Assembly (NCBI GenBank): GCA_946628865.1
Contig: CAMOXE010000097.1
Coordinates: 1 to 59,421 of the forward strand
DNA from: an uncultured Clostridia bacterium
GTDB lineage: Bacteria > Bacillota > Clostridia > Christensenellales > Borkfalkiaceae
Reading direction: 5' to 3'
DNA length: 59,421 bases
Each line of letters opens with the position of its first letter. Within the stretch, counting starts at the first letter, position 1. The notes beneath the pieces are model-generated. The model ran no database searches, had not been told where the DNA came from, and saw nothing but the letters and a program-made list of their open reading frames with translations. This document shows, one piece after another, positions 2,035-43,502 of the stretch. The position numbers and the translations under genes were made by a program.

Positions 2035-2076
2035 TTTGTAATAAATTTGTAATATAAATAATGATAAGATGTAAAT
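2035..2076 (+). promoter_or_regulatory. 11-bp-phased direct repeat TTTGTAAT-AAA-TTTGTAAT plus an in-phase TGTAAAT two turns later; candidate operator, site A
   Basis: TTTGTAAT at 2035-2042 and 2046-2053, TGTAAAT at 2070-2076, about 70-110 nt upstream of the 2144 start. The same motif occurs at 7028 and 27695. Confidence 0.6.
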
Positions 2077-2143: not shown

Positions 2144-5100
2144 ATGGCGAAAGATCAGGAAAACAAGGAAAACGAGCAGAAACAACCCGAGTTTACCGGA
2201 GAATGGTTTCAGCCGGGGCAGGAAGTGACGAAAGCGGACCTTCTTGCAAAACTTGCGAGCGTTGAAGAACGCTTTGCAAGCGAGATAAAAGGCGAAAACT
2301 GGTGGGTGGAAAGGCAGGAGTACGAAGCCAGAGAAAACCAAAAGAAGGCATTGAAAGACCTGTTCGACGCAGGCATGCAAAAGATGACGCCGGAGGGTAA
2401 GAGGCGCGTATACGAATCTATAAGCGATAAAGGCAGAGAGGCTGCGAACAAAGAAGCCCTCAAGGACTACGCTCGCCTTCTTAACGGAAAAGACAAGTCG
2501 GCGGAGAGCAAAAAACTTTCCGATAAAATCTGGGACGAGATAGACACCATAACCGTCAATGAAGTCAAAGAGATGGCTGCCGGGTTTTTAACGGAAGAAG
2601 AAAAGAAGGATCCCAAGATCGATCCCTCCGAGAGGATAAAATTTGAGGAGTTAGGCTCGACGGATATGAAACTTTGGTCGGCGTTCGTGGAGGCTTTGCC
2701 CGAAGACGCGGTAAAAGACGCGGCGCTTGCGGCGGACAATCACGTCGACCAACTCAAAAGACCTTTTGAAGAGGTCAGAATTTTAAATTACTCGAAAGAA
2801 GTCGAGGAAACGAAAGGATTTATCGATACTCTCGAAGAGTATAACGGCGAAAAACTTACTCCCGAGCGCAAAGAAGAACTCAAAGAGGCGCTCGACCGCG
2901 CCAACGAAATGACGGCGAGTACCGACGAAAAGTATGAATCCGCGCTGAGCGCCGTCAACATCGCGAGGTCGGAGTATTCGTACAGCGCAACTCTTTGGAG
3001 AAAAAAAGTAGCCGAGGAGACCTTGAAAAAAGACGGGATCAACGTCAGCAGGGACGGCAAGGGCATCAAATTTTTGGAAGTCGAGATTACTCCCGGGGGA
3101 TATTTAGCCGACAATAATGAACCGATAAAGCTTAAAACGGTTCCGGAAAAGGGAAAGGCTCAATTCGATAAGATGAAGGAATATAATTTCCAAATGCGCC
3201 CCGAAACCAAACAGGCTATCAAGGATATTTTTGCGAAATTCGATAAATACGGCTTTGATAGTAACGTGTTTGTCCCCGAAGAAGGGACTAAAGTCTACGG
3301 TTTTCACAGATTCGTAAGCGCCTCGAAGGAGTTCAAGAATGCGATTACGAGCAAGGATCCGGCAGACAAACTCAAAGCGGTCGAAGCCGCAGAAAAACTT
3401 CAAGTAGAGACGAACAGGGTAAAAGAACTAATGTCCGACGCGCGCAAGATTTTCGGCGTCGACAACGGAGGTTTTTACCCCGGCAACCTCGACCTTCAAA
3501 GAGAGGGCAGACTATATCCCCCGGAACTGCGCGCCGACATTGCCGGCACGTCCTGCATGAACGGCTTATACATACTGTACCGTACCGTAAAAGAAGAAAA
3601 GTTAGACCTCGACACCTTCCTTGACAACCCGAGAATCTATGTAAGAGGGAAGATGCAAGAAAAGATCGAAAAACTCGACGTAAACAAGACGATCAAAGGC
3701 AAATCCGGCGCGGAAGCCATTTTCGAGTTGGCAATACCCGACTACGCGATAGATCCTATCGGCGGAATGTCTCTCGGCAGAACGATGGAGACCATCGCCA
3801 AGGCGGAAACCGATCCGGAGATGCAAAGGCACAATATGGGCGTCGAATACGCGCACGACCTGTCAGACGAGTTCGTCCTTAACGCCACCGCTCAGCGCCG
3901 CACACTTTTGCACGGCGGTATGGAGCATTTAGATCGTTATCTGATGGTAGACGAGCCGCAGGAGGACGCGTCGCTTTTAGGACTGCGCCTGTACGATTAC
4001 GATACGATGACGCTTAAACCCGCGCGCGAGTTTGACGAGGTCGGTTATCTTTCGGAAAAACGCGAGCCGCCCGAGCAATACGCCGATCGCATAACGAACG
4101 AGTGTACGAAACTTATAACCATGTTGCTGCAAGACGGACAGAAACCGAAAGATCAAAGAATGATCGACTCTTCGGAAATGCCGGTCGACGCGGTTTTGTG
4201 GGCTGCGCATAACGCGGCGGCGAAATACCTTGCGGTTTTCCCCGACATCGACAAAAAGAGCGAGGCGTACAAGACTCTTCACGAACTGACGTATAACAAC
4301 GTGGAGTACTTCAAGAATAAAATAGAACAAATAAACGAGGAAAACGGTTACGATTTCGATATCGAAGAAGCGTTTGAATCTGCCAAAAAGCGCAAGACCA
4401 AACAGACGATAGACGAATTCAAAAAATCCAACGCTATTCGTCGTCTGGGCGACGGCGAGAGAGCGGCGGACAAACAACTCAACGCTAAATTGAAAGGCTT
4501 AAGCTCCGAACTTGAAAAAGCGAAGAAAGACCTCGATAAAGCCAAAGGCGGCGCCGTAAAGGAGCAAGCGCAAAAGCGCGTTGACGAAGCGCAGAAAAAA
4601 CTCAACGAAGCCGTCGCCGAACGGAAAAAACAACTGCTTGAGAGTTTCCATCGCGGCGACATCAGCGAAGAATATCTTAATAGGCGCGGCGCGCAACTTG
4701 ACGACGGACTAAAAACCGGCAAATTCGACAACAAAGTTCCCAAGATGTTCGAGGCCGACGAGTTGCTTGGCAAAAACGACTACCTCAAAAAGCAGTTCCC
4801 CGACGATTACGCGGATTTCAGCAAAGAAGAAAAAGAGGAATTGTACAATCGTTATGTAGAGCGCGCAAAACTCGCAAAAGACGACTTTATCGCAAGAAAG
4901 TATCTGCGGAACGAGGGAACGGTTTCGGAAAAGACTTTCATGACGAAAGAGGAGCGTATCGCCGAAGAGGACGCAAGACTTCTGAGAAACGATCCGAATG
5001 CCGTGCAGAAACCGAAAGGAAAGGAAGAAGTAAATAAAAACGAAAAAGACGCAGAGCAAATCGAAATCGATCCGGAACAGGAAGAAAAGGAAGTAGCGGA

Positions 5101-5290
5101 AGAAAAAACCGAGCAGAAAGATAATGTCGAGGCGGAAAAACAGATTGACGGAGAAAAAGCGGATCTCGATAAAGACGTAGTACCCGTGGTCGTCGACCTC
5201 GATGAAGAAGAAGTTGCAATAGGCGACGACATGTTGTCATTCGGCAAGGAAAAGACGGTTGAAAAGGATTCGCCCAAAATAGACGTCTGA
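2144..5290 (+). CDS. 1,048-aa highly charged, predicted all-helical protein with no signal peptide or TM; standalone member of the T4SS-associated giant-protein family; function unknown
   Basis: Long ORF with GGAGGA RBS at 2131-2136. Collinear similarity to each of the three modules of the 33053-41770 protein (anchors EVTKADLLAKL, ETKQAIKDIFAKFDKYGF, YPGNLDLQREGRLYPPELRADIAGTSCMNGLY, KGKSGAEAIF, MFEADELLGKNDYLKK, DDMLSFGKEK). Confidence 0.9.
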   Translation: MAKDQENKENEQKQPEFTGEWFQPGQEVTKADLLAKLASVEERFASEIKGENWWVERQEYEARENQKKALKDLFDAGMQKMTPEGKRRVYESISDKGREAANKEALKDYARLLNGKDKSAESKKLSDKIWDEIDTITVNEVKEMAAGFLTEEEKKDPKIDPSERIKFEELGSTDMKLWSAFVEALPEDAVKDAALAADNHVDQLKRPFEEVRILNYSKEVEETKGFIDTLEEYNGEKLTPERKEELKEALDRANEMTASTDEKYESALSAVNIARSEYSYSATLWRKKVAEETLKKDGINVSRDGKGIKFLEVEITPGGYLADNNEPIKLKTVPEKGKAQFDKMKEYNFQMRPETKQAIKDIFAKFDKYGFDSNVFVPEEGTKVYGFHRFVSASKEFKNAITSKDPADKLKAVEAAEKLQVETNRVKELMSDARKIFGVDNGGFYPGNLDLQREGRLYPPELRADIAGTSCMNGLYILYRTVKEEKLDLDTFLDNPRIYVRGKMQEKIEKLDVNKTIKGKSGAEAIFELAIPDYAIDPIGGMSLGRTMETIAKAETDPEMQRHNMGVEYAHDLSDEFVLNATAQRRTLLHGGMEHLDRYLMVDEPQEDASLLGLRLYDYDTMTLKPAREFDEVGYLSEKREPPEQYADRITNECTKLITMLLQDGQKPKDQRMIDSSEMPVDAVLWAAHNAAAKYLAVFPDIDKKSEAYKTLHELTYNNVEYFKNKIEQINEENGYDFDIEEAFESAKKRKTKQTIDEFKKSNAIRRLGDGERAADKQLNAKLKGLSSELEKAKKDLDKAKGGAVKEQAQKRVDEAQKKLNEAVAERKKQLLESFHRGDISEEYLNRRGAQLDDGLKTGKFDNKVPKMFEADELLGKNDYLKKQFPDDYADFSKEEKEELYNRYVERAKLAKDDFIARKYLRNEGTVSEKTFMTKEERIAEEDARLLRNDPNAVQKPKGKEEVNKNEKDAEQIEIDPEQEEKEVAEEKTEQKDNVEAEKQIDGEKADLDKDVVPVVVDLDEEEVAIGDDMLSFGKEKTVEKDSPKIDV

Positions 5291-5446: not shown

Positions 5447-5565
5447 TTGATTTGGCGGATTCCGCGATTTGTGATATAAAATATATAATATCATTTGACG
5501 ATGACGTAATACGGCGCTCGAATAATTGCGAAAATCGCTTATTCTCGCTTGTATTAGAAATAAAT

Positions 5566-5594
5566 TTGACAAACTCTGTCGGATATAATATAAT
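5566..5594 (+). promoter_or_regulatory. Sigma-70-type promoter of the kinase gene (TTGACA-17-TATAAT)
   Basis: TTGACA at 5566-5571, a 17-nt spacer, and TATAAT at 5589-5594. The -10 ends 6 nt before the ATG at 5601 and no Shine-Dalgarno is present. Confidence 0.6.
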
Positions 5595-5600
5595 AAAAAT

Positions 5601-6893
5601 ATGGAACTGACGTATCTGAACCTTATACTCTCTTGCGCGGTTGGGGTGTCCTCGCTTGCGGGGGTTATAGGCGTCGCCGTTTTCTCAAATAGGGCGAAGA
5701 AAGAAAAAATTGCCACGGCGGCAATACTTTTTCTGTTTTTCGCGGTTTCCGTTTTCGGCGGAGCGGCGCGTTTTTACGGCGCTAAAGAAGGGAACGCGGC
5801 TTTGGCTTTTACGCTTGAAAGCGTAAAAGCGGCGGCGAGCGTCTATTTGGCATTCGGTCTCGTTTTCGGCGGAGCGGCGATTTGTCTCCCCAAAGACAAA
5901 AAATTATTTCCGTGGCACGCCGCGGGCGGTGTCGCCTGCATAGCGGCGACCGTCATGCTTATAATAAACCGCTTTACGCGCTTTTTGTTCGACTATGAAA
6001 GCGGCCGACCGATATATAACGCCGCTTATTTTTGGATTTTGGCTATATTTGCGGCTATACTTGCAGAGGGATTTGCGCTATTATTCATAAACCGAAAGGC
6101 GATTTCAAAGTACGATAAAATAAAGTTTTCGGCTTTATTTTGCCTGTTCGCTTGCGCCGCGGCGCTCGACGCAATTTTCCCGAAATACCCGATTTATGCG
6201 CTTATAGGCGTACTTTCCGCATTGATTACCGAAGGTTTGGAGCGCATAAAAAGCGAGGACCGCTATCAAAAAGCAAAACGCGAGGCGGACGAATTGCGCA
6301 GAGACGTTTCGCTCGCGCAGGCTCAGATAATCCAAAGTCAGGTTTCGCCGCATTTTATCTACAACGCGCTGACGGCGATTCAGGCTCTGCCGAACAATCC
6401 GTATATGACGAAGAAAGCGATAGGCGATTTCGCGAAGTATTTAAGGCAGACGCTCTCGTCGGGCAACGAGAACAAACTTATACCTTTTGAGAAAGAACTC
6501 GAAAACGTGCAGGCGTATTTTCGGCTGGAGAAGATACGTTTCGGCGACGAACTGAATATCGTATACGACGTCGGCGTAACGGATTTCTCCGTACCCGTTA
6601 TGAGCGTGCAGATCCTCGCCGAAAACGCCGTTAAGCACGGCGTGTCGGTAAAGAGGGGCGGCGGCACGGTAAAAATTTCCGCCAAGCGCACGGGCGACGC
6701 CGTTGCGGTAACGGTCGAGGACGACGGCGTCGGTTTCGACCCTGCAAAGGCGCTCGACTCGTCGCACGTCGGGATAAACAACGTAAAAAGCAGAATAAAG
6801 TCGCTCACGGGCGGAGACGTTGAGATAGATAGTAAAATAGGCTACGGAACTAAAGCTACGATAACGATTCCGATACGGGCGGGCGAGGAGTAA
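5601..6893 (+). CDS. LytS/YehU-type sensor histidine kinase with a multi-TM N-terminus
   Basis: About 6 hydrophobic helices at the N-terminus, H-box SQVSPHFIYNALTAI (His_kinase PF06580 type), N-box ILAENAVKHG, and G-boxes EDDGVGFD and GYGT. Confidence 0.88.
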   Translation: MELTYLNLILSCAVGVSSLAGVIGVAVFSNRAKKEKIATAAILFLFFAVSVFGGAARFYGAKEGNAALAFTLESVKAAASVYLAFGLVFGGAAICLPKDKKLFPWHAAGGVACIAATVMLIINRFTRFLFDYESGRPIYNAAYFWILAIFAAILAEGFALLFINRKAISKYDKIKFSALFCLFACAAALDAIFPKYPIYALIGVLSALITEGLERIKSEDRYQKAKREADELRRDVSLAQAQIIQSQVSPHFIYNALTAIQALPNNPYMTKKAIGDFAKYLRQTLSSGNENKLIPFEKELENVQAYFRLEKIRFGDELNIVYDVGVTDFSVPVMSVQILAENAVKHGVSVKRGGGTVKISAKRTGDAVAVTVEDDGVGFDPAKALDSSHVGINNVKSRIKSLTGGDVEIDSKIGYGTKATITIPIRAGEE

Positions 6894-6923
6894 AATTCGG
6901 AAAACCGCAAAATTTCAATAAAA

Positions 6924-6953
6924 CCGAGCTCGGCTTGCAGCCGAACTTTTTAT
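6924..6953 (+). terminator. Terminator-like hairpin after the kinase gene
   Basis: Stem tcggct-tgc-agccga (6930-6944) followed by actttttatt. Overlaps the palindrome ccgagctcgg. Confidence 0.5.
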
Positions 6954-6989
6954 TATATAAAATAATTTATATTATATAAAATAATTTAT
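6952..6989. repeat. Perfect 19-bp tandem repeat x2 made only of A/T (attatataaaataatttat)
   Basis: Unit 1 is 6952-6970 and unit 2 is 6971-6989. They are identical and are followed by a partial third copy, atatta. Confidence 0.9.
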
Positions 6990-7000
6990 ATATTAAATTG

Positions 7001-7030
7001 TGGCAACGCGGCGCGCGTTGTCATATTTTT
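7001..7030 (+). terminator. Strong GC-rich hairpin plus T-run immediately upstream of operator site B
   Basis: Stem tggcaacgcg / cgcgttgtca (7001-7010 / 7014-7023) with a 3-nt loop, then tattttt. Confidence 0.6.
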
Positions 7031-7047
7031 GTAATAGTTGTTGTGTT
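7028..7047 (+). promoter_or_regulatory. Candidate operator site B: TTTGTAAT-AGT-TGTTGTGTT, with a degenerate second half-repeat
   Basis: TTTGTAAT at 7028-7035 and GTTGTGTT at 7040-7047, 40-60 nt upstream of the 7087 start. Shares its first repeat with sites A and C. Confidence 0.5.
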
Positions 7048-7086
7048 ATTATTTAGGGGAGAAATTATAAGGGGGCTGAGCGACAA

Positions 7087-8364
7087 ATGGGTTTTTTAAA
7101 GAAACTCTACGAATTGATAAAGACCGAATTCGATACGAATAAGACCCATTTGCAAGCGCAAGGGCAGAGCGGAGCGCCTACGGAAATCGTAAGGCGGGAA
7201 CTGACGGACGAGATTTTTCTTTTGGAGCGCGCGCTTTTAATGAATCCGAAACAGTTATCTGAATTCGACTTGACCAAAAGCCGCGAATTATACCGCGACG
7301 CGCCCTTTGACGAACTCGAATTCATAGTAAAAAACGATCTCGTATCCGGGCAGTACGTTGCAAACGCTCGGGAATGCGTTTTGGACCTTTACGAGATTTC
7401 CACGGTCGAAAACGAAAACGAGAGCGAGAAATATCTCGGCGACGACCTTGCCAAAGCGACGCTTAATCTGTTGCACAGGCAGGCGGCGCAAGTGCTTTTA
7501 TTGTCCGGGGACGACGATAACGGTCGCCTTGCTTGGCTGACGAAACAACCCGAATCTTTCGTTCAGGCGGCGCTTATAGAGGAAGGAAAGCCCGCGGACG
7601 CGTTCGACAAAGTCGGATACGACGAGGATCTGTCGGCTTTGGACATCGACTATAACGAATTTTTACATAAGACCTCGTCCGAATACAGAAAAAACGCGGA
7701 GTACGCGGCGGACAAGGCGTTCAATAAACAGGCTACAAGGCAGAAAAGGCTTATAAAGAAGTGGGAGAAGAGACTGTTTTCGGCGAAAGGCGAATACCGC
7801 ATGGAATGCGAATATCAAAAATCGCGCGCGGAGAAGAATCTTTCCCGCGCGACGGAGGCTCGGCGCGAGGCTTTGGCGGACGCGTTCAGGCTCGGCGAAA
7901 TAAGCGAGTATTATTACCGTCAGCGTACTGAGCAGTTGTCGTCGGGGGATTATTCGCGGCTTCCGGGGCTTTTCGAGGCGGACGACTTAAAAAACAAATC
8001 GGCGTATCTGAAAAAACACGACTTGCAGGATTTAAGCAAGGCGGAGGCGGACAACATACTGCTGCTTGCGAAAAGGCGGGCAAGCGAAGATAAGCGGGTA
8101 TTTTTCACGAAGAAGTTTTTAAGCGAGCGCAAAATATCCAGCGCTACGCGGTTCACCATTTCCGAAATGAGGATAGACACCGAACTTTTCTACCGCGGGT
8201 TTTCCGAGGGCGGGGAACTTGCGGGCGGAGTTGTCGAAGAAATAGAAGAAGAGCCGACGAAGATCACGATCGACGTGAGCGAGCCGCTCCCCAAAGGCGA
8301 CGGGTCGTTCGCGTTAGGCGGCATAAAATACGTCGAGCCGTTCGACAGGAGGATCGATAAATGA
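7087..8364 (+). CDS. 425-aa short member of the giant-protein family; keeps only the C-terminal module; function unknown
   Basis: RBS AAGGGGG. YYRQRTEQLSSGDYSRLPGLFEADDLKNKSAYLKK...VFFTKKFL aligns with YLNRRGAQLDDG...PKMFEADELLGKNDYLKK...FIARKYL (2144 gene) and with FYAARMEQLNKGD...PPFFRADDLPKRDKYIE...TFLTKKYM (33053 gene). ATGA overlap with the next gene. Confidence 0.85.
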   Translation: MGFLKKLYELIKTEFDTNKTHLQAQGQSGAPTEIVRRELTDEIFLLERALLMNPKQLSEFDLTKSRELYRDAPFDELEFIVKNDLVSGQYVANARECVLDLYEISTVENENESEKYLGDDLAKATLNLLHRQAAQVLLLSGDDDNGRLAWLTKQPESFVQAALIEEGKPADAFDKVGYDEDLSALDIDYNEFLHKTSSEYRKNAEYAADKAFNKQATRQKRLIKKWEKRLFSAKGEYRMECEYQKSRAEKNLSRATEARREALADAFRLGEISEYYYRQRTEQLSSGDYSRLPGLFEADDLKNKSAYLKKHDLQDLSKAEADNILLLAKRRASEDKRVFFTKKFLSERKISSATRFTISEMRIDTELFYRGFSEGGELAGGVVEEIEEEPTKITIDVSEPLPKGDGSFALGGIKYVEPFDRRIDK

Positions 8365-9155
8365 TAGTAATTGCCGTCGACGACGAGGCGCTCGCGTTAA
8401 AATCTTTGGTCGACACGATAAAAAACGTAAAGCCGGACTGCGAGATATATCCGTTCAGAGACCCGATGCAAGCGCTCAGACTGCTTGAAAGCGGAGTAAA
8501 GCCGGACGTGGTTTTCAGCGACGTCAGGATGTTCGATATGACGGGGATACAGTTCGCGCACCGCGTAAAGGTAATTTATCCTCGCACGAACATAGTATTC
8601 GTTACGGGCTATAAAGAGTATATGATGGACGCCATAAGACTGCACGCGAGCGGATATTTATTAAAGCCCGTGGACGAGGAACGTCTTAAAGAACAGTTCG
8701 ACGACTTGCTCTATCCCACGGCGGCAAAGCGCGGCGAGCGCAGGTTTTACGCCCAGACGTTCGGGAACTTCGAGTTTTTCTGCGACAATCTGCCGGTACA
8801 TTTTCCGCGGGCGAAGTCCAAGGAGATCCTCGCGTATCTCATCGACAAAAAGGGTGCGGCGTGTACGCGATCCGAACTGCTCGTCAATTTGTTTGAAAAG
8901 AGCGGTATAGGCAACGACAATCAATATCTCTCGCAAGCCTTTTCGGCGCTTATGAAAACGCTTAAACAGATCGGCGGAACGGATATTATTATAAAATCGC
9001 ACAATTCCTATTCGGTAAACACCGAAAAGTTCGGTTGCGATTATTACGATTATATAGACGGAGACGTTAAAGCGATAAACGCGTATCAAGGCGTATATAT
9101 GGCAAATTATTCGGACTGGTCGGATTTCACGGGCCCGAAAAAAAACAGGTTTTGA
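8361..9155 (+). CDS. Response regulator: REC domain plus C-terminal winged-helix DNA-binding domain of OmpR/SARP (BTAD N-terminal) type
   Basis: REC landmarks DD (VDDE), phospho-acceptor FSDVRM, VFVTGY and YLLKP. C-terminus FGNFEFFCDNLPVHFPRAKSKEILAYLIDKKGAACTRSELLVNLFE. Confidence 0.85.
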   Translation: MIVIAVDDEALALKSLVDTIKNVKPDCEIYPFRDPMQALRLLESGVKPDVVFSDVRMFDMTGIQFAHRVKVIYPRTNIVFVTGYKEYMMDAIRLHASGYLLKPVDEERLKEQFDDLLYPTAAKRGERRFYAQTFGNFEFFCDNLPVHFPRAKSKEILAYLIDKKGAACTRSELLVNLFEKSGIGNDNQYLSQAFSALMKTLKQIGGTDIIIKSHNSYSVNTEKFGCDYYDYIDGDVKAINAYQGVYMANYSDWSDFTGPKKNRF

Positions 9156-27694: not shown

Positions 27695-27731
27695 ATTGTA
27701 ATAGATTTGTAACACCCAAAAGTGTTATAAT
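27695..27731 (+). promoter_or_regulatory. Candidate operator site C (ATTGTAAT-AGA-TTTGTAAC) overlapping the -35 position of an extended -10 promoter (TGtTATAAT)
   Basis: Repeats at 27695-27702 and 27706-27713. TGTTATAAT at 27723-27731, 37 nt before the ATG at 27768. Confidence 0.6.
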
Positions 27732-27767: not shown

Positions 27768-28064
27768 ATGAAATCAATGTTGCTAATGACTTCGGCAGAA
27801 ATGACGAAAATTATCAGCCCCATCCTCGAGGTCTGCAAAGTCCTCGTACCCGCTCTTTTAGCCGTTGTAGGCGCGGTCGGAGCGATCTACTGCATTTTGC
27901 TCGGCGTCAAATACGCGCGCGCAAGCGAGCCGCAGGAACACGAAAACGCGAAAAAAGCGCTTCAACACGCTATTGTGGGATTCGTTCTCATTTTCGTTCT
28001 TCTCATAATGTTACAAGTCGGCATATCGATCTTCACGGATTGGTGGCAAGGATATGCGTATTAA
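27768..28064 (+). CDS. 98-aa two-TM membrane protein, VirB2/TrbC pilin-like topology
   Basis: RBS AAGGAAGG. Hydrophobic helix VLVPALLAVVGAVGAIYCILLGV, charged loop KYARASEPQEHENAKKALQH, then a second helix AIVGFVLIFVLLIMLQVGISIF. First gene of the apparatus operon. The call rests on topology and context only. Confidence 0.45.
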   Translation: MKSMLLMTSAEMTKIISPILEVCKVLVPALLAVVGAVGAIYCILLGVKYARASEPQEHENAKKALQHAIVGFVLIFVLLIMLQVGISIFTDWWQGYAY

Positions 28065-28941
28065 AAAGAAAGACATCTTTCTTTTTATCGCAACCTTAAT
28101 CGCGGCAATAGCCCTATCGGGGTGCTACGAACTCGGCGACGCAACCGAGAACGACGAAGAATATCGCAGTAATTATTCCATCATACGGTTTATAGGCAGG
28201 AAAGGCGAAACCGCATCTTTTGGCATGAAAGATTTTTATACCAAAGAGGCGGTAAACGACTTCGCTTCGCCGATGTCGGAAGAACTGCGTCAAAAATACT
28301 CCTACATCATGATAAAGTCCGAAAACTCGGTGAGTTTGGGCGAACTCGCGATGTATTTTGAATCCGACGTAGCGGCGGAGGTTTTCGTGTCCGTGTTTAT
28401 ACTGAGCGAGGACGAACTCCCCACGAAACTCTACGACGGAGAGAACGGGGAAGTATCGGAGGAGGACTGCGACGAGCCGGAAAACGAAGCGGCGGTGACG
28501 GAACTTTCTTTTCGCGTTACCGGCGCGGAAGCGTCTGCCAAAAAAAGGTGGCAACCCATGTATCTCAAGTCGTGGGCAAAGGCGGGCGCGCCGAAAGTCA
28601 AGAGGTTGAATATCGAAGGCGGGCAATATATCGTTTTTCGCATAAAAAACAACTGTTACGACCCCGCGCTGCGCGTCTTTAACCGCGCAAAAAAAGAGTG
28701 GCAAGCAGTAGTGGACGACTACACGGCAAAAGAGGCTGCGCTAAAAGCGGTTTCAGAGGACTCGTCCGCGACCGCAGACCAAAAAGTCGCCGCCAAGAAC
28801 GCGTTCGACGCCGCCGCCAAAGCGAAAGCCGTCGCCGACGCGTCGTATAGTCAAGCGCTTGAACGCTACGAAAGAGAAAAAGCGCCGGAAATGACAGAGG
28901 TTTCGTTCAGGATCACCGCGGTTTTGATAAACGCGGAGTAA
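28054..28941 (+). CDS. 295-aa lipoprotein, T4SS-associated, function unknown
   Basis: Signal peptide with lipobox IALSGC. 11-nt overlap with the upstream gene. Ala/Lys-rich helical C-terminus. Confidence 0.8.
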   Translation: MRIKKKDIFLFIATLIAAIALSGCYELGDATENDEEYRSNYSIIRFIGRKGETASFGMKDFYTKEAVNDFASPMSEELRQKYSYIMIKSENSVSLGELAMYFESDVAAEVFVSVFILSEDELPTKLYDGENGEVSEEDCDEPENEAAVTELSFRVTGAEASAKKRWQPMYLKSWAKAGAPKVKRLNIEGGQYIVFRIKNNCYDPALRVFNRAKKEWQAVVDDYTAKEAALKAVSEDSSATADQKVAAKNAFDAAAKAKAVADASYSQALERYEREKAPEMTEVSFRITAVLINAE

Positions 28942-28951
28942 AGGAGAAAAA

Positions 28952-30346
28952 ATGTTCGATTGGTTTTGGGAATTTTTATACGGAATTACTAAATCCCTTC
29001 TGCGCCTAATAGACGGGCTTATTTCCTGTGCAAACAAATTGTGCGGAATAGAAACCGTCAACATCGGCGGTACCGAAACCGATTTGGTTTCATACATGAT
29101 GAGGAGCGAAACGCTGTCAAACGCCTTCAGGGTCGCCGCGGTTATCGGGTTTGTCGTTCTGATATTTTTCACGATTGCGAGGATCATAATGGTCATCGTA
29201 AAAGAAAAACCGGATATGTCTCCCGGTCAGGTTGCGGTAAAGGCGTTCAAAACCTTGTTGCTGTTTTTGTTCGTTCCCGCCATAATGATCACCGCCATAT
29301 GGGCGCTCAATACGCTTATGGGCATATTATACAGCGTAACCAGAAACGGCTCGCAAAACCTCGGCAGTTTCCTTTTCGGAATCTTTTCGCAGGACGCGGA
29401 AATCACGAACCCGACGCTGTACGAAGAGATAGTCGCCGGCACTAAGAGTTACGTCGACACCGACCTCGTTTCCGAAGCGATCGACTTGTCCGATTTCGAC
29501 TTCCTCTATTCTTGGGCGGCGGGGCTGGTGCTGCTGTTTACGCTGACCAGCGCCATGGTTCAGTTCGTAGACCGCGCCATAAGCATAGGCGTGTTGTTCG
29601 TGGTGTCTCCGTTTTCGGTCGCGTCGTCCGTTCTTGACGACGGCGGGAGGTTTAAGTTATGGAGAGAGCAGGTGCTTATCAAGTTTATGTCCGGCTACGG
29701 CATAATTCTGTATCTGAACATATACTGCCTGCTCATTTCGATTATAACACCGTCGTCGGTAGTATTTTATCCCGACAGCGGACTTATCAACGGCATTTTC
29801 AAACTACTGATAATAATCGGCGGAGCGTTCGCAATGCAAAGAGGCTCCGCGCTGATAGGCAATCTTCTCTCTGCGGGCGGAGGCTCGAGAGAACTTATGG
29901 ATTCTTCGCTTGGTCGTCTCGGCGCGTCCGCGATAACGGGCGGCGGCAAACTCGTCGGCAAAGGCATTTTTGCGGGCGGCAAAAAACTTTGGGGGAAACT
30001 CTCCTCTAAAGACAAGAAAAGCGACGACGCCAAGAAAGACGAATCAAAATCCGCAGAGGGAGAGGCGAAGGACGATTCTTCCACGGGCGAGAAATTCGAC
30101 AAAGACCCGAAGTACGGCGACAAGAAAGATCTTTCGTCTAAACTCAAGAACGAATCGCAGCCCAAACCCGCGGGCGACGGAGCCGCCAAAAAGGACGGCG
30201 ATAACGGCGGAGCAAAGGACAACGCGAGCGGCACGAAATTCGACAACGATAAAAACGACCTTAACAAATCGCGCAGCGACGCCATAAAAAATTCGCTCGA
30301 CAATTTCGAGAGCCCGGGGAGTATAAACGATCCCGACGAGGATTAA
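28952..30346 (+). CDS. 464-aa polytopic membrane protein, VirB6/TrbL-like, with a ~115-aa K/D/S-rich disordered tail
   Basis: RBS AAGGAGAA. At least 6 hydrophobic helices. Positioned between the pilin-like gene and virB4-like gene, as in Gram-positive T4SS operons. The family call is an inference from context. Confidence 0.5.
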   Translation: MFDWFWEFLYGITKSLLRLIDGLISCANKLCGIETVNIGGTETDLVSYMMRSETLSNAFRVAAVIGFVVLIFFTIARIIMVIVKEKPDMSPGQVAVKAFKTLLLFLFVPAIMITAIWALNTLMGILYSVTRNGSQNLGSFLFGIFSQDAEITNPTLYEEIVAGTKSYVDTDLVSEAIDLSDFDFLYSWAAGLVLLFTLTSAMVQFVDRAISIGVLFVVSPFSVASSVLDDGGRFKLWREQVLIKFMSGYGIILYLNIYCLLISIITPSSVVFYPDSGLINGIFKLLIIIGGAFAMQRGSALIGNLLSAGGGSRELMDSSLGRLGASAITGGGKLVGKGIFAGGKKLWGKLSSKDKKSDDAKKDESKSAEGEAKDDSSTGEKFDKDPKYGDKKDLSSKLKNESQPKPAGDGAAKKDGDNGGAKDNASGTKFDNDKNDLNKSRSDAIKNSLDNFESPGSINDPDED

Positions 30347-30364
30347 GGAGGACGCAAATAACCG

Positions 30365-33025
30365 ATGAGAGTTATACCTAAAACCGCAAAAGTAAAAGTT
30401 CAATTTTTTAAAAACATATCGGTAGCGGATATTCTGTTCGCCTTGCTCGGGCTGGTGCTTGTCGTGGTGATATGTCTGAGCAATATCGGCATATCCCGCT
30501 TTTTCATAGCGCTGGTAGTCGCGTGCGCGGTAGGCTGTCTGTTTCTTCCTTACGACGGGCAGAGGTTTTATCTGTTTTTCAGAACGTTCGTGCGATATTT
30601 GTTTTCGGTCAAGAAATACGTCAAGCAAGACGTCGAAAGCGCGTCGAGCGTCAAGGCGATTTTCGCGTTTAAAAACGTCAAGGACGGCTATATCGAATTC
30701 GGCGATTATTACGCCGGCGTTTTAGAGATAGGCTCGAGAGAGTTCAGGCTGCTCACGGGCTTTCGCCAGGACCAGATAATAAACAACCATTTCGGAAAAG
30801 TCATCCGCGCCATATCGGGCAAAACGCGCGCGTCGCTCGTCAAGATAGACAAGAAAATCAATTTCGAGGACTTTATCGCAAGGGAAGAAGTAAAGCGCGA
30901 AGACTTGAAAAAGACCTTCGACGCAGGCGAACTTACCGAGCAGGAACTGTTTGTCCGCGAACGCGTTTTGCAAGACAGAATAGCGGTGTATAACAATCTC
31001 AATTCGTCCGGCGCGGACAAGATAATGGCGCCGTCGTTTTATCTCGTCGTATACGACGCGCAAAAAAGCGTTATCGACGAAGTGCTTTCAAACGCCGTCG
31101 AAACGTTCGCCGAAGCCGGTATGGAGTCGCACGTTTTAAACACGAAAGAATTATGCGTGTTTTTAAAGTACAACTACACGGATAAGTTCAACGAAGAGGA
31201 CGTCGACGTGATCGACGAGCGCGAATATATGAATTGGATACTTCCCGACGAAGTTTCGTTCACTTCGAGAAGTACCGTCATAGACGGCGAAGAGAGTTTC
31301 TGCTTTACTATCCGCAACTATCCGCTCACGGTCGGCAACGCGTGGGGTTTTCAACTCTTCAACACCGAGGACACGAAAGTCGTGATGAATTTAGAGCCTT
31401 TCGAGAAGGACAAAGCCGTAAGGATGATAGACCGCTCGTTGCAGGAACTGCTTTCTCAAAGCGAGCAGTCATACAGGGCGAGTTCGGTTATCGACAAGAC
31501 CACGCATATCAACACCTTGGTGCAACTTCTCGCTCTGCTTAAAAACGACAACGAAAACCTTTACAAGGTAAACATACACGTTACGCTATATAACCGCGAG
31601 AAACAAAAGAAAAAGGACCTTAAAAAGCGCCTTATGCGCGTGCTGTCCGAGCAAGGTTTTGAACTTTCGGACGATTTTTGCAACCAAAACCGCGCGTTTA
31701 TCTCGATGAACCTTTCCCAAAACGACGTGATGACGGAATTTCAGCGCTCGATACACTCGAATTCCGTGGCGGCGGTGTTCCCGTTCGTGTTGTCGACGAT
31801 AATGGAAAAGGGCGGCGTGACGATAGGTCAAAGCAAGGGTTTCCCGGTAATAGTAGATTTCTTTGCGCGTAACAACGAGAGGGTAAACTCAAATATGGTA
31901 ATAATGGGAAAGTCCGGATCCGGAAAATCCTATTCCACCAAGACATTGCTTACGCATTTGGCGACGGAGAACTGTAAGATATTTATCCTCGACCCCGAGA
32001 ACGAATACGACGTCATGGCGTCGAATCTCGGCGGAAAACTGATAGACGGAGGAACGGCGAGCCACGGCAAACTCAATCCTTTCCACGTCATAACTACGCT
32101 CGACGCCGACGAAGATACGGACGGAGCGAGCAGCGCGTTTTCGGTTCACTTACAGTTTTTGGAACAGTTTTTCCGCGAAATACTTCCCGGCATCGGCGCG
32201 CACGCGCTCGAGACCTTAAACAACCTTATCGTCGAGTTATACGCGAAAAAGGGCATCACCGAAGAATCGGATTTTTCGGCATTAAAGCCGGAGGACTATC
32301 CGATATTCGACGACTTATACGCGTTCATTATGGAAAAATTAGAGGTTGCGGAAGTCGCGTATGACGTTGAAAACCTGAGGATATTGAAAAACTTCATATC
32401 CAAGTTCGCCTCCGGCGGCAGAAACTCGAAACTCTGGAACGGTCCGAGTACGCTGTCGGTCAAAGAGAACTTTGCTGTGTTCAACTTCCAATCCCTCCTC
32501 GCCAACAAAAACGGCGTAATAGCAAACGCGCAGATGCTGCTCGTTTTAAAGTGGCTCGACAACGAGATAATCAAAAACAGAGATTTCAATTTAAAGTACA
32601 ATACTAACAGAAAAATAATCGTCGCAATCGACGAGGCGCACGTCTTTATAGACCCGAAATACCCTATCGCGCTCGACTTTATGTATCAACTTGCAAAGCG
32701 TATCCGTAAATACAACGGTATGCAGATAATAATCACTCAAAACATAAAGGACTTCGTGGGAAGTCAGGAGATAATAAGAAAATCCACCGCGATAATAAAC
32801 GCTTGTCAGTATTCGTTTATATTCGCCTTAGCGCCTAACGACATGGACGATCTTTGCACGCTTTACAGCAAAGCGGGAAATATAAACTCCGCGGAGCAAG
32901 ACCAGATAATCAACAATTCGAGGGGCAGCGCGTTTATAATAACCGGACCGCAGTCGAGAACGAGCATAGACATAATAGCCTCCGAGAGGGTAGCGTCTTT
33001 ATTCGGAGAGAAGAAAGCGCAATAA
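30365..33025 (+). CDS. VirB4/TraE/PrgJ-type T4SS ATPase with an N-terminal two-TM VirB3/PrgI-like segment
   Basis: N-terminus ISVADILFALLGLVLVVVICLSNIGISRFFIALVVACAVGCLFLP, Walker A VIMGKSGSGKSY, FILDPENEY, Walker B VAIDEAHVF and IIITQNIKDF. Confidence 0.85.
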   Translation: MRVIPKTAKVKVQFFKNISVADILFALLGLVLVVVICLSNIGISRFFIALVVACAVGCLFLPYDGQRFYLFFRTFVRYLFSVKKYVKQDVESASSVKAIFAFKNVKDGYIEFGDYYAGVLEIGSREFRLLTGFRQDQIINNHFGKVIRAISGKTRASLVKIDKKINFEDFIAREEVKREDLKKTFDAGELTEQELFVRERVLQDRIAVYNNLNSSGADKIMAPSFYLVVYDAQKSVIDEVLSNAVETFAEAGMESHVLNTKELCVFLKYNYTDKFNEEDVDVIDEREYMNWILPDEVSFTSRSTVIDGEESFCFTIRNYPLTVGNAWGFQLFNTEDTKVVMNLEPFEKDKAVRMIDRSLQELLSQSEQSYRASSVIDKTTHINTLVQLLALLKNDNENLYKVNIHVTLYNREKQKKKDLKKRLMRVLSEQGFELSDDFCNQNRAFISMNLSQNDVMTEFQRSIHSNSVAAVFPFVLSTIMEKGGVTIGQSKGFPVIVDFFARNNERVNSNMVIMGKSGSGKSYSTKTLLTHLATENCKIFILDPENEYDVMASNLGGKLIDGGTASHGKLNPFHVITTLDADEDTDGASSAFSVHLQFLEQFFREILPGIGAHALETLNNLIVELYAKKGITEESDFSALKPEDYPIFDDLYAFIMEKLEVAEVAYDVENLRILKNFISKFASGGRNSKLWNGPSTLSVKENFAVFNFQSLLANKNGVIANAQMLLVLKWLDNEIIKNRDFNLKYNTNRKIIVAIDEAHVFIDPKYPIALDFMYQLAKRIRKYNGMQIIITQNIKDFVGSQEIIRKSTAIINACQYSFIFALAPNDMDDLCTLYSKAGNINSAEQDQIINNSRGSAFIITGPQSRTSIDIIASERVASLFGEKKAQ

Positions 33026-33052
33026 ATCAAATATTGACGAGAGGAACGTTTT

Positions 33053-42326: not shown

Positions 42327-43502
42327 ATGAGAAGTAAGAAATTTTCAGAGGTTATCCGTAAACTGACCGCTTTGGCGTTAACGCTTGCGTCTATAGTCGG
42401 AGTTTTGGCGGGTTGCGTAATTAAATTTGAGTTTGACGACGCGGATATTCTCGCGAAAACCTCGGTTATCGAGATAAAGGAGATCAAAAAGCACGGCAAC
42501 GTCGTTTTAGACGTTACCTTTGCCGAGATGCGCGAGATAGGTCTTGAAACGGGCGACGTAATAACCGTTTCGGTCGGAGAATCGAAGTACGAAATGCCTA
42601 TCGGAACGTCTTTCAGCGACGTGGACAGCGGCGAGATGATCTGTCGTTTCGACGAGGAGGACGACGAAGTGGCGCTTGCCGTCAATATGGGGTCGTTTGC
42701 CGAAAAAACCGGAATAGCCGAAAAACAGACTATAGAAGAAGATCCGGGGTATAAATGGACTGTAAAAATATCCGAACTTATGATAACGCTCAAAGAAAAG
42801 CGCGGCTATCTCGACGAATATCGGGTACGCAATCTTACGCGCAGCAACGCGCGTGAAGATTATCCGAGCCTTACGGACGAGGAATTTGCGAATTTCAGAG
42901 CGGTGCCATTAAGAGGAATAAAAGCAAATACCTTTTACAGGAGCAGTACGCCGATAGACCCGGCGATCGGGCGCAGCGAATACGCGATGAGAGCGATCGA
43001 GCAAGCGGGAATAAAATCTATCTTAAACCTTGCCGACTCCGTCGAGACGATGGAAAGTTACGATGCTTATGTCGGGAGTTATTACGGCGACTGCGCCGTG
43101 ATAAATCCTGAAATGTCCTACGATTTCGAGAGCGCGGAGTTCGGTGATAAGGTAAAGACGTGCGTAGAATTTATCATAAACGGCGAGGGACCTTTTCTGA
43201 TACATTGTAAAGAGGGCAAGGACCGCACGGGAATTTTATGCGCTATTTTGGAGTGCTATGCGGGCGCAAGCGCGGAAGAGGTCTTTTACGATTATATGCT
43301 CACTTATGTAAACTATTACGGGATAGACTCTTCCGATTCGGTTTACAGCGTCATACTCAATAAAAATCTCGTAAAAACGCTATGCGCGCTGTTAAAAGTC
43401 GAAAGCCTTAAAGGCATAAACCTCAAAGAAAAGGCGCGAGAGTATTTGATTTCAATCGGAGTTACGGACGAAGAATTAAAAGCGCTTTCCGAGAAATTGT
43501 AA
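42327..43502 (+). CDS. Lipoprotein with a C-terminal Cys-based protein tyrosine phosphatase domain (Y_phosphatase3-like)
   Basis: Lipobox GVLAGC, FYRSSTP, and the CX5R active-site loop HCKEGKDRTG. The N-terminal ~130-aa beta-rich domain was not confidently recognised. Confidence 0.75.
   Translation: MRSKKFSEVIRKLTALALTLASIVGVLAGCVIKFEFDDADILAKTSVIEIKEIKKHGNVVLDVTFAEMREIGLETGDVITVSVGESKYEMPIGTSFSDVDSGEMICRFDEEDDEVALAVNMGSFAEKTGIAEKQTIEEDPGYKWTVKISELMITLKEKRGYLDEYRVRNLTRSNAREDYPSLTDEEFANFRAVPLRGIKANTFYRSSTPIDPAIGRSEYAMRAIEQAGIKSILNLADSVETMESYDAYVGSYYGDCAVINPEMSYDFESAEFGDKVKTCVEFIINGEGPFLIHCKEGKDRTGILCAILECYAGASAEEVFYDYMLTYVNYYGIDSSDSVYSVILNKNLVKTLCALLKVESLKGINLKEKAREYLISIGVTDEELKALSEKL

Follow-up and report, generated by a model that had tools for sequence, protein, structure and literature searches.

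A phased direct repeat is the probable operator of a cluster-encoded response regulator in an uncultured Clostridia bacterium

Introduction

Replacement of the -35 element by a direct-repeat operator of the OmpR/PhoB type is a well-known, textbook class of mechanism. The word repeated in the pho box of Escherichia coli PhoB is CTGTCAT. Operators of the LytTR type (AgrA/ComE-like) go with regulators that contain a LytTR domain and are built from 9-bp repeats approximately 21 bp apart. In the pho box, 4 A/T-rich bp come after each of two 7-bp repeats, and the box takes the place of the -35 element near the -10 (PMC4971064). SARPs recognise repeats spaced by 11 or 22 bp near the -10, from which the 3' copy is separated by about 8 bp; the centre of the afs box is at -29.5 and not at -41.5 (PMC10936776).

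The DNA analysed here, referred to as the window, is the whole of a 59,421 nt stretch from an uncultured gut or rumen Clostridia bacterium that carries a type IV secretion-like gene cluster. A sequence-only reading of the window had noted a direct repeat with an 11-bp phase upstream of three transcription units, and had proposed that it is the operator of a REC/winged-helix regulator encoded within the cluster and defines a small regulon. A search of the literature on the 'SAPR family', COG3947 and two-component-controlled type IV secretion systems (T4SS) in Clostridia found no description of this regulator family or of its regulon. In this study, the repeat, the promoters it adjoins and the regulator were examined in the window and in related loci, which are designated by number (L001 and so on).

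Results

The cluster includes two operons and two further genes, all on the forward strand. The operon at 7087–27623 is made up of overlapping genes for a 425-aa protein (7087–8364), the response regulator (8361–9155), a 1300-aa protein, a VirD4/TraG coupling protein and a 4026-aa protein. The second, at 27768–43502, encodes a T4SS pilin, a 295-aa protein, a VirB6-like protein of the MMCAP2_0566 family, a VirB4/TraG-like ATPase, a giant protein of 2905 aa (33053–41770), LuxS and a phosphatase; luxS (41792–42316) and the tyrosine-phosphatase-like gene (42327–43502) are tightly placed at its end. Upstream of both operons lie a gene for a 1048-aa protein (2144–5290) and a sensor kinase gene (5601–6893). 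Neither a relaxase nor an integrase was found in those cluster proteins (7087–43502) that were scanned. The genes flanking related clusters differ between genomes (rhamnose genes or GH36, for example), which suggests that the cluster is a movable island.

No Pfam family was matched by the 1048-aa protein, the 425-aa protein or the giant protein. The 1048-aa protein can be aligned, at 22–27 % identity over approximately 660–960 residues, with the N-terminal part of the giant protein encoded after VirB4 in related loci, and its C-terminal end, approximately 170 residues long, is similar to the 425-aa protein. The three form an uncharacterised paralogous set within the cluster. As the 1048-aa protein is a paralogue of cluster proteins, the repeat upstream of its gene (site A, below) would control a relative of the cluster components.

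The repeats that had been reported at site A, TTTGTAAT-AAA-TTTGTAAT (2035–2053), and at site C, ATTGTAAT-AGA-TTTGTAAC (27695–27713), are present as described. At site B, TTTGTAAT does occur at 7028–7035, but the downstream partner assigned to it, TGTTGTGTT (the pair spanning 7028–7047), is a poor in-phase match and was rejected; the true partner is TTGTCAT at 7018–7024, upstream, which is kept in L001, L003 and L005, and the stretch 3' of the proximal half contains only a variable spacer and the TG of an extended -10 box. Corrected in this way, the motif reads TTGTAAT-N3-TTTGTAA, a 17-bp direct repeat with an 11-bp period at all three sites. When the window was searched with TTGTAATNNNTTTGTAA, allowing at most one mismatch, three matches were found, all on the + strand, which is the coding strand of the downstream units. 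Site A (2036–2052; TTGTAATAAATTTGTAA, i.e. TTGTAAT-AAA-TTTGTAA) has no mismatch and lies 5' of the gene for the 1048-aa protein. Site B (7018–7034; TTGTCATATTTTTGTAA, i.e. TTGTCAT-ATT-TTTGTAA) has one mismatch and precedes the operon at 7087–27623, and site C (27696–27712; TTGTAATAGATTTGTAA, i.e. TTGTAAT-AGA-TTTGTAA), again without mismatch, precedes the operon at 27768–43502.

Three paired matches with at most one mismatch compare with 0.04 expected, and none of 100 dinucleotide shuffles of the 59-kb window reached three. Relaxing the threshold to three mismatches added three matches, each with exactly three, and the total of six is at chance level (6.6 expected). Single words are not enriched in the window, whether TTTGTAAT (4 observed, 2.4 expected) or TTGTAA (30 observed, 28 expected), so that it is the in-phase pairing and the placement that carry the signal. 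A position weight matrix (PWM) trained only on orthologous sites outside the window scored sites C, A and B at 30.2, 28.8 and 22.6 bits, the next-best match in the window reaching 12.9 and the maxima of shuffled sequences averaging 13.3 with a top value of 19.2; these scores and the p-values are partly circular, as it was with a pattern taken from the window that the orthologous sites were located, and the unbiased support is that from 12 of 12 pilin promoters, the site in L112 and the period-11 scan, all described below. The motif scan of the organism's own genome covered the 59 kb of the window. The motif precedes three transcription units, as stated earlier, and no pair occurs in the other intergenic regions of the window, where the sequence-only reading had not noticed one either. 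The observation of the repeat pair is confirmed and is stronger than first reported. A lone TTTGTGAT that had also been pointed out at 5468–5475 is indeed there; it was rejected as a site, having no partner 11 bp to either side and falling outside the 15 best PWM matches in the window.

Each site is followed by a predicted extended -10 box of the form TGnTAnnnT. At promoter A, the weakest of the three, this is TGaTAAGAT (2062–2070; hexamer 2065–2070), and at promoter B it is TGtTATTAT (7044–7052; hexamer 7047–7052), both hexamers beginning 12 nt after the proximal TTGTAA. At promoter C it is TGtTATAAT (27723–27731; hexamer 27726–27731), with a gap of 13 nt. A -35 hexamer is absent, and the canonical -35 position reads TNNNTT. 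Among 21 non-identical sites, drawn from the window and from related loci (L112 included), the gap between the proximal TTGTAA and TAnnnT is 12 nt in 16, 13 nt in three and 11 nt in two, and TG precedes the -10 hexamer in most. The arrangement is like that of a pho box, in that the repeats abut the -10 at a fixed gap (here 11–13 nt, mostly 12) and no functional -35 hexamer is found. Since a gap of 12 nt is too short, and the distal copy at 23 nt is too far, neither TTGTAA can be a -35 element, and with no usable -35 hexamer the three promoters should depend on an activator. If the -10 hexamer is placed at -12 to -7, the repeat pair is predicted to cover approximately -41 to -25. The TGTAAAT at 2070–2076 that had been taken for a third in-phase repeat at site A is present, but it is missing from sites B and C and from L112, and it overlaps the predicted -10 hexamer TAAGAT of promoter A; its reading as a repeat fails.

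The intergenic region ahead of promoter B contains further features. An AT-rich tandem repeat at 6947–6991 (19-bp unit TTTATATTATATAAAATAA, 2.4 copies, 96 % matches) lies between the terminator-like hairpin of the kinase gene (6930–6944) and site B. It is followed at 6999–7025 by a terminator-like structure, a GC-rich hairpin of 12 pairs and then a T run, the 3' arm of which (GCGTTGTCA) overlaps the distal half, TTGTCAT, of site B. The orthologous locus L001 has the same TTGTCAT without the hairpin. This overlap may be no more than incidental; alternatively, termination and access to the operator may be coupled through it.

Site B is kept 5' of the gene for the 425-aa protein in L001/L002, L003/L004 and L005, where the regulators are 86, 75 and 88 % identical, respectively, to that in the window. 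The sequences are TTGTCAT-AGA-TTTGTAA in L001/L002, TTGTAAT-AAA-TTTGTAA in L003/L004 and TTGTAAT-ATT-TTTGTAA in L005, each with a 12-nt gap to TGnTAnnAT and with unrelated flanks. For site C, all 12 metagenomic loci that encode a pilin at least 64 % identical and for which upstream DNA was available have the pair in the same place, with no more than one mismatch. The one orthologue of site A with upstream DNA, L112 (protein 56 % identical), has ATGTAAT-AGA-TTTGTAA followed after 12 nt by TGtTATAAT; in L113 and L114, which encode distant relatives of the 1048-aa protein, there was either no usable upstream DNA or no motif. Over 20 non-identical sites, information content is confined to the 17–18 bp box and the -10 block, and the flanks are unconserved. 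The regulator gene and sites B and C are found together on one contig, Ga0256405_10000652. A promoter with the motif in L060 drives a gene for a 1273-aa protein and, after it, the regulator gene, an arrangement that would again amount to autoregulation.

The proposed binding protein (8361–9155, + strand) consists of a receiver domain, a winged helix of the OmpR/PhoB type and a short C-terminal helical stub. The receiver is complete, with D7, D8, D54 and K102 invariant and T82 nearly so among the homologues compared, and is closest to the LytR/BtsR type. In Pfam searches, Response_reg was matched with an E-value of 3e-19 and Trans_reg_C weakly, in the C-terminal part (E 0.0046); the latter family was also matched by 12 of 30 homologues. 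The DNA-binding part of an AlphaFold model (mean pLDDT 84.6) consists of a small beta-sheet, a set of three helices and a wing formed by a beta-hairpin, with two short helices after it. The best Foldseek matches were the full-length structures of DrrB, CosR, PrrA, PhoP, VanR, DrrD, KdpE and PmrA, and a sequence profile aligns the protein across both domains of DrrB, DrrD and PrrA. The regulator is accordingly an OmpR/PhoB-type protein with a receiver and a winged helix, the type that had been given to it from the sequence alone. No BTAD was found in the window protein, which ends approximately 45 residues after the wing, in 30 homologues, or in three longer relatives of 418–422 aa, and because of this the regulator is not considered to be a SARP. 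An operator of the LytTR type, which the LytS-type kinase might suggest, was rejected, as there is no LytTR domain, the fold is that of a winged helix and the period is 11 bp and not approximately 21.

The sensor kinase (5601–6893, + strand) is of the LytS type (His_kinase, PF06580, and HATPase_c). There is no operator at its own promoter (5566–5594), which has a perfect sigma-70-type consensus, TTGACA-17-TATAAT (12 of 12 positions), in contrast to the three promoters that lack a -35. When the kinase was used in tblastn searches, matches were found in 75 fetched loci and, among the matches listed, all end just 5' of the regulator gene. The kinase is therefore taken to be the cognate partner; the two genes are adjacent in L001–L004. 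In L001/L002, which represent an 86 % orthologous locus, a small TfoX_N-like (competence-related) gene at 6738–7025 lies just 5' of the kinase gene; it has no counterpart in the window.

The regulator family is very large in Clostridia. At least 519 genome loci include a relative, and 80 were fetched. A scan for periodicity was made in the 200 nt 3' of the regulator gene at 77 distant loci that had sufficient sequence, where the homologues are 38–47 % identical to the window protein. Perfect (8/8) direct repeats of 8 nt with a period of 11 were found at 13 of the 77 loci, compared with 0–2 loci for each of the periods 8–10 and 12–19, and in only four of 395 random 200-nt controls. When 7/8 matches were allowed, 28 loci scored at period 11 and no more than 12 at any other. 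Anchoring on repeats of the form xTGxxxx placed a TAnnnT hexamer preferentially 11–12 nt further on, and other periods gave almost nothing. The repeated words vary from locus to locus and include TTGTTAT, TTGTCAC, TTGTGGA, TTGATGT, GATGTGC and TTTGCGC; an exact TGTAA or TTGTA at period 11 gave at most a weak signal across 79 distant regulator loci. What members of the regulator family share is the period and the geometry and not the word.

Distant pilin operons are likewise associated with 11-bp-phased pairs of other words, namely GGTGTA (L097–L100 and L107), TTTGATTT (L108) and GTTGCRC (L075). In L097–L100 and L107, GGTGTA-N5-GGTGTA lies right 5' of the pilin operon in more distant T4SS-like clusters, and in L075 the GTTGCRC pair is found directly 3' of a regulator that is 39 % identical. 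No clear repeat was seen in L031, where a distant regulator adjoins VirD4. The recognition helix of the regulator starts with YLSQ or YFSQ in the window, L001, L005 and L006, which have TTGTAA(T/C) boxes, and with QSLSQ in L003; this is suggestive of a recognition-helix start that varies with the repeat word. A word that changes with the regulator while the period is kept would indicate a private regulator and operator that co-evolve, and argues against a universal factor.

The 11-bp repeats follow homologues of the regulator even where no secretion genes are present. In L010, L017, L018 and L026 (Clostridioides difficile HC132), the product of the gene behind the repeats is a diguanylate cyclase of the GGDEF type that has Cache or PAS sensor domains; the C. 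difficile example has two copies of GATGTGCTTTA. Members of the regulator family may often control c-di-GMP synthesis.

Discussion

The system described here is close to the PhoB pho box, sharing two direct repeats in which a 7-bp word and approximately 4 bp make up an 11-bp period, a position adjoining the -10 and replacing the -35, a similar word (CTGTCAT against TTGTCAT or TTGTAAT here) and a regulator composed of a receiver and a winged helix. It differs in that the kinase is of the LytS type (PF06580) and not PhoR, the regulator has a receiver closest to the LytR/BtsR type and an extra C-terminal stub, the -10 boxes are extended, and the targets are secretion-like and not phosphate genes. 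The sites of SARPs of the AfsR and ActII-ORF4 type are similar in having 11-bp direct repeats near the -10, a box centred near -30 and a poor -35, and homologues of the regulator are labelled 'SAPR family response regulator' by JGI. In contrast to SARPs, however, the regulator has no detected BTAD, carries an N-terminal receiver and comes from Clostridia, not actinomycetes. The distance from the heptamer to the -10 is 11 nt, or 7 nt when counted from the end of the 11-bp unit, so that comparison with the 8 bp quoted for SARPs depends on how the repeat is delimited.

We consider it probable that TTGTAAT-N3-TTTGTAA is the operator of the two-component response regulator encoded at 8361–9155, and that it acts as an activating element which replaces the -35 at the three promoters of a regulon. 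The LytS-type kinase, made from its own consensus promoter, would phosphorylate the regulator at D54. The phosphorylated protein would bind as a head-to-tail dimer, its two winged-helix domains each seated on one TTGTAA(T/C) half-site, at a distance of one helical turn. The occupied box, at about -41 to -25, would then stand in for the missing -35 hexamer of the three extended -10 promoters, and the dimer would recruit or position RNA polymerase, in the manner of PhoB at pho boxes and of SARPs at their repeats. The proposed regulon comprises the gene for the 1048-aa protein, the operon at 7087–27623 and the pilin/VirB6/VirB4 operon from 27768; as the first of these operons contains the regulator gene, positive autoregulation is also proposed. 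We infer physical binding, activation in preference to repression, and the positions of the transcription start sites. The operator and small regulon put forward by the sequence-only reading are likewise favoured by the type of the regulator, by the conserved geometry and by the way in which such repeats track the regulator family.

That the same protein acts at the same sites as a repressor, blocking RNA polymerase at -41 to -25 until relieved by phosphorylation or dephosphorylation, seems improbable. Though the box overlaps the stretch expected to be occupied by sigma region 4, and members of the OmpR family can repress as well as activate, as reported for Mycobacterium tuberculosis PhoP (PMC11825685), the promoters lack a -35 hexamer able to work unaided and their -10 boxes are of the extended type. 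In addition, the orientation and the 12-nt spacing are strict across lineages, which is expected where a protein contacts the polymerase and is unneeded for simple occlusion, and the geometry matches that of pho-box and SARP activator sites (PMC4971064, PMC10936776). We think it less probable still that the sites are bound by a housekeeping regulator of the OmpR family encoded elsewhere and not by the cluster's own. The chief candidate would be a WalR (YycF)-like protein, as the half-site word and spacing of the WalR box of Firmicutes are nearly the same, and sites A and C (TGTAAT-N5-TGTAAT and TGTAAT-N5-TGTAAC) fit the Bacillus subtilis consensus TGTWAH-N5-TGTWAH exactly (PMC9210968). However, the distal half of site B, TGTCAT, breaks that consensus, and this variant is conserved in L001/L002. 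The kinase type and genomic context of the cluster regulator also differ from those of WalR, and the word is not universal, GGTGTA, GTTGCRC and TTTGATTT being used at the same 11-bp period by related pilin operons. Moreover, 11-bp repeats accompany homologues of the cluster regulator in loci without secretion genes.

Least probable of all, in our estimation, is an element that is either the -35-like element of an alternative sigma factor or an AT-rich sequence, arisen by chance or duplication, with no regulatory role. TTGTAA matches TTGACA at four of six positions and is not enriched in the window by itself, and TTGTAA-16-AATAAT is the promoter put forward by a scanner at site C; a domain is common to the 1048-aa and 425-aa proteins, which makes duplication of their promoters conceivable in principle. 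Use of the proximal TTGTAA as a -35 with a spacer of 16–17 nt was nevertheless rejected, as orthologues keep the 12-nt geometry with the extended -10 but not the 16-nt alternative. A sigma factor needs one -35 element and not two identical in-phase copies, paired matches are expected only 0.04 times, and the 17 bp are kept while the flanks differ both between the three sites and between orthologues. An activating operator for the regulator encoded in the cluster is thus the explanation that we prefer.

A broader reading can be offered only tentatively, and as a whole we regard it as doubtful. The regulator would belong to a large, uncharacterised Clostridial family of receiver plus winged-helix ('SAPR'-like) proteins, each with a LytS-type kinase and a private, 11-bp-phased word of the form (T/G)TGnnnn positioned 11–12 nt 5' of an extended -10, the box being centred near -30. 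This would be a SARP-style 'sigma adaptation' in Firmicutes, placed under phosphorylation control, that in this lineage would turn on a type IV secretion-like machine devoid of a relaxase and equipped with giant surface proteins. The luxS gene, located in the same operon, may be connected with the signal.

For the organism, the analysis provides a testable model for regulation of a T4SS-like cluster that includes proteins of 4026 and 2905 aa, and names the promoters that would be co-regulated, the protein that would bind and the bases involved. The most useful by-product is a rule for a widespread and unstudied family of regulators, namely a private word repeated with an 11-bp period, then 11–12 nt, then the -10. 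Such a rule could allow the targets of family members to be predicted directly from genome sequence, and those predicted include the diguanylate cyclases that adjoin homologues of the regulator in C. difficile and several other Clostridia.
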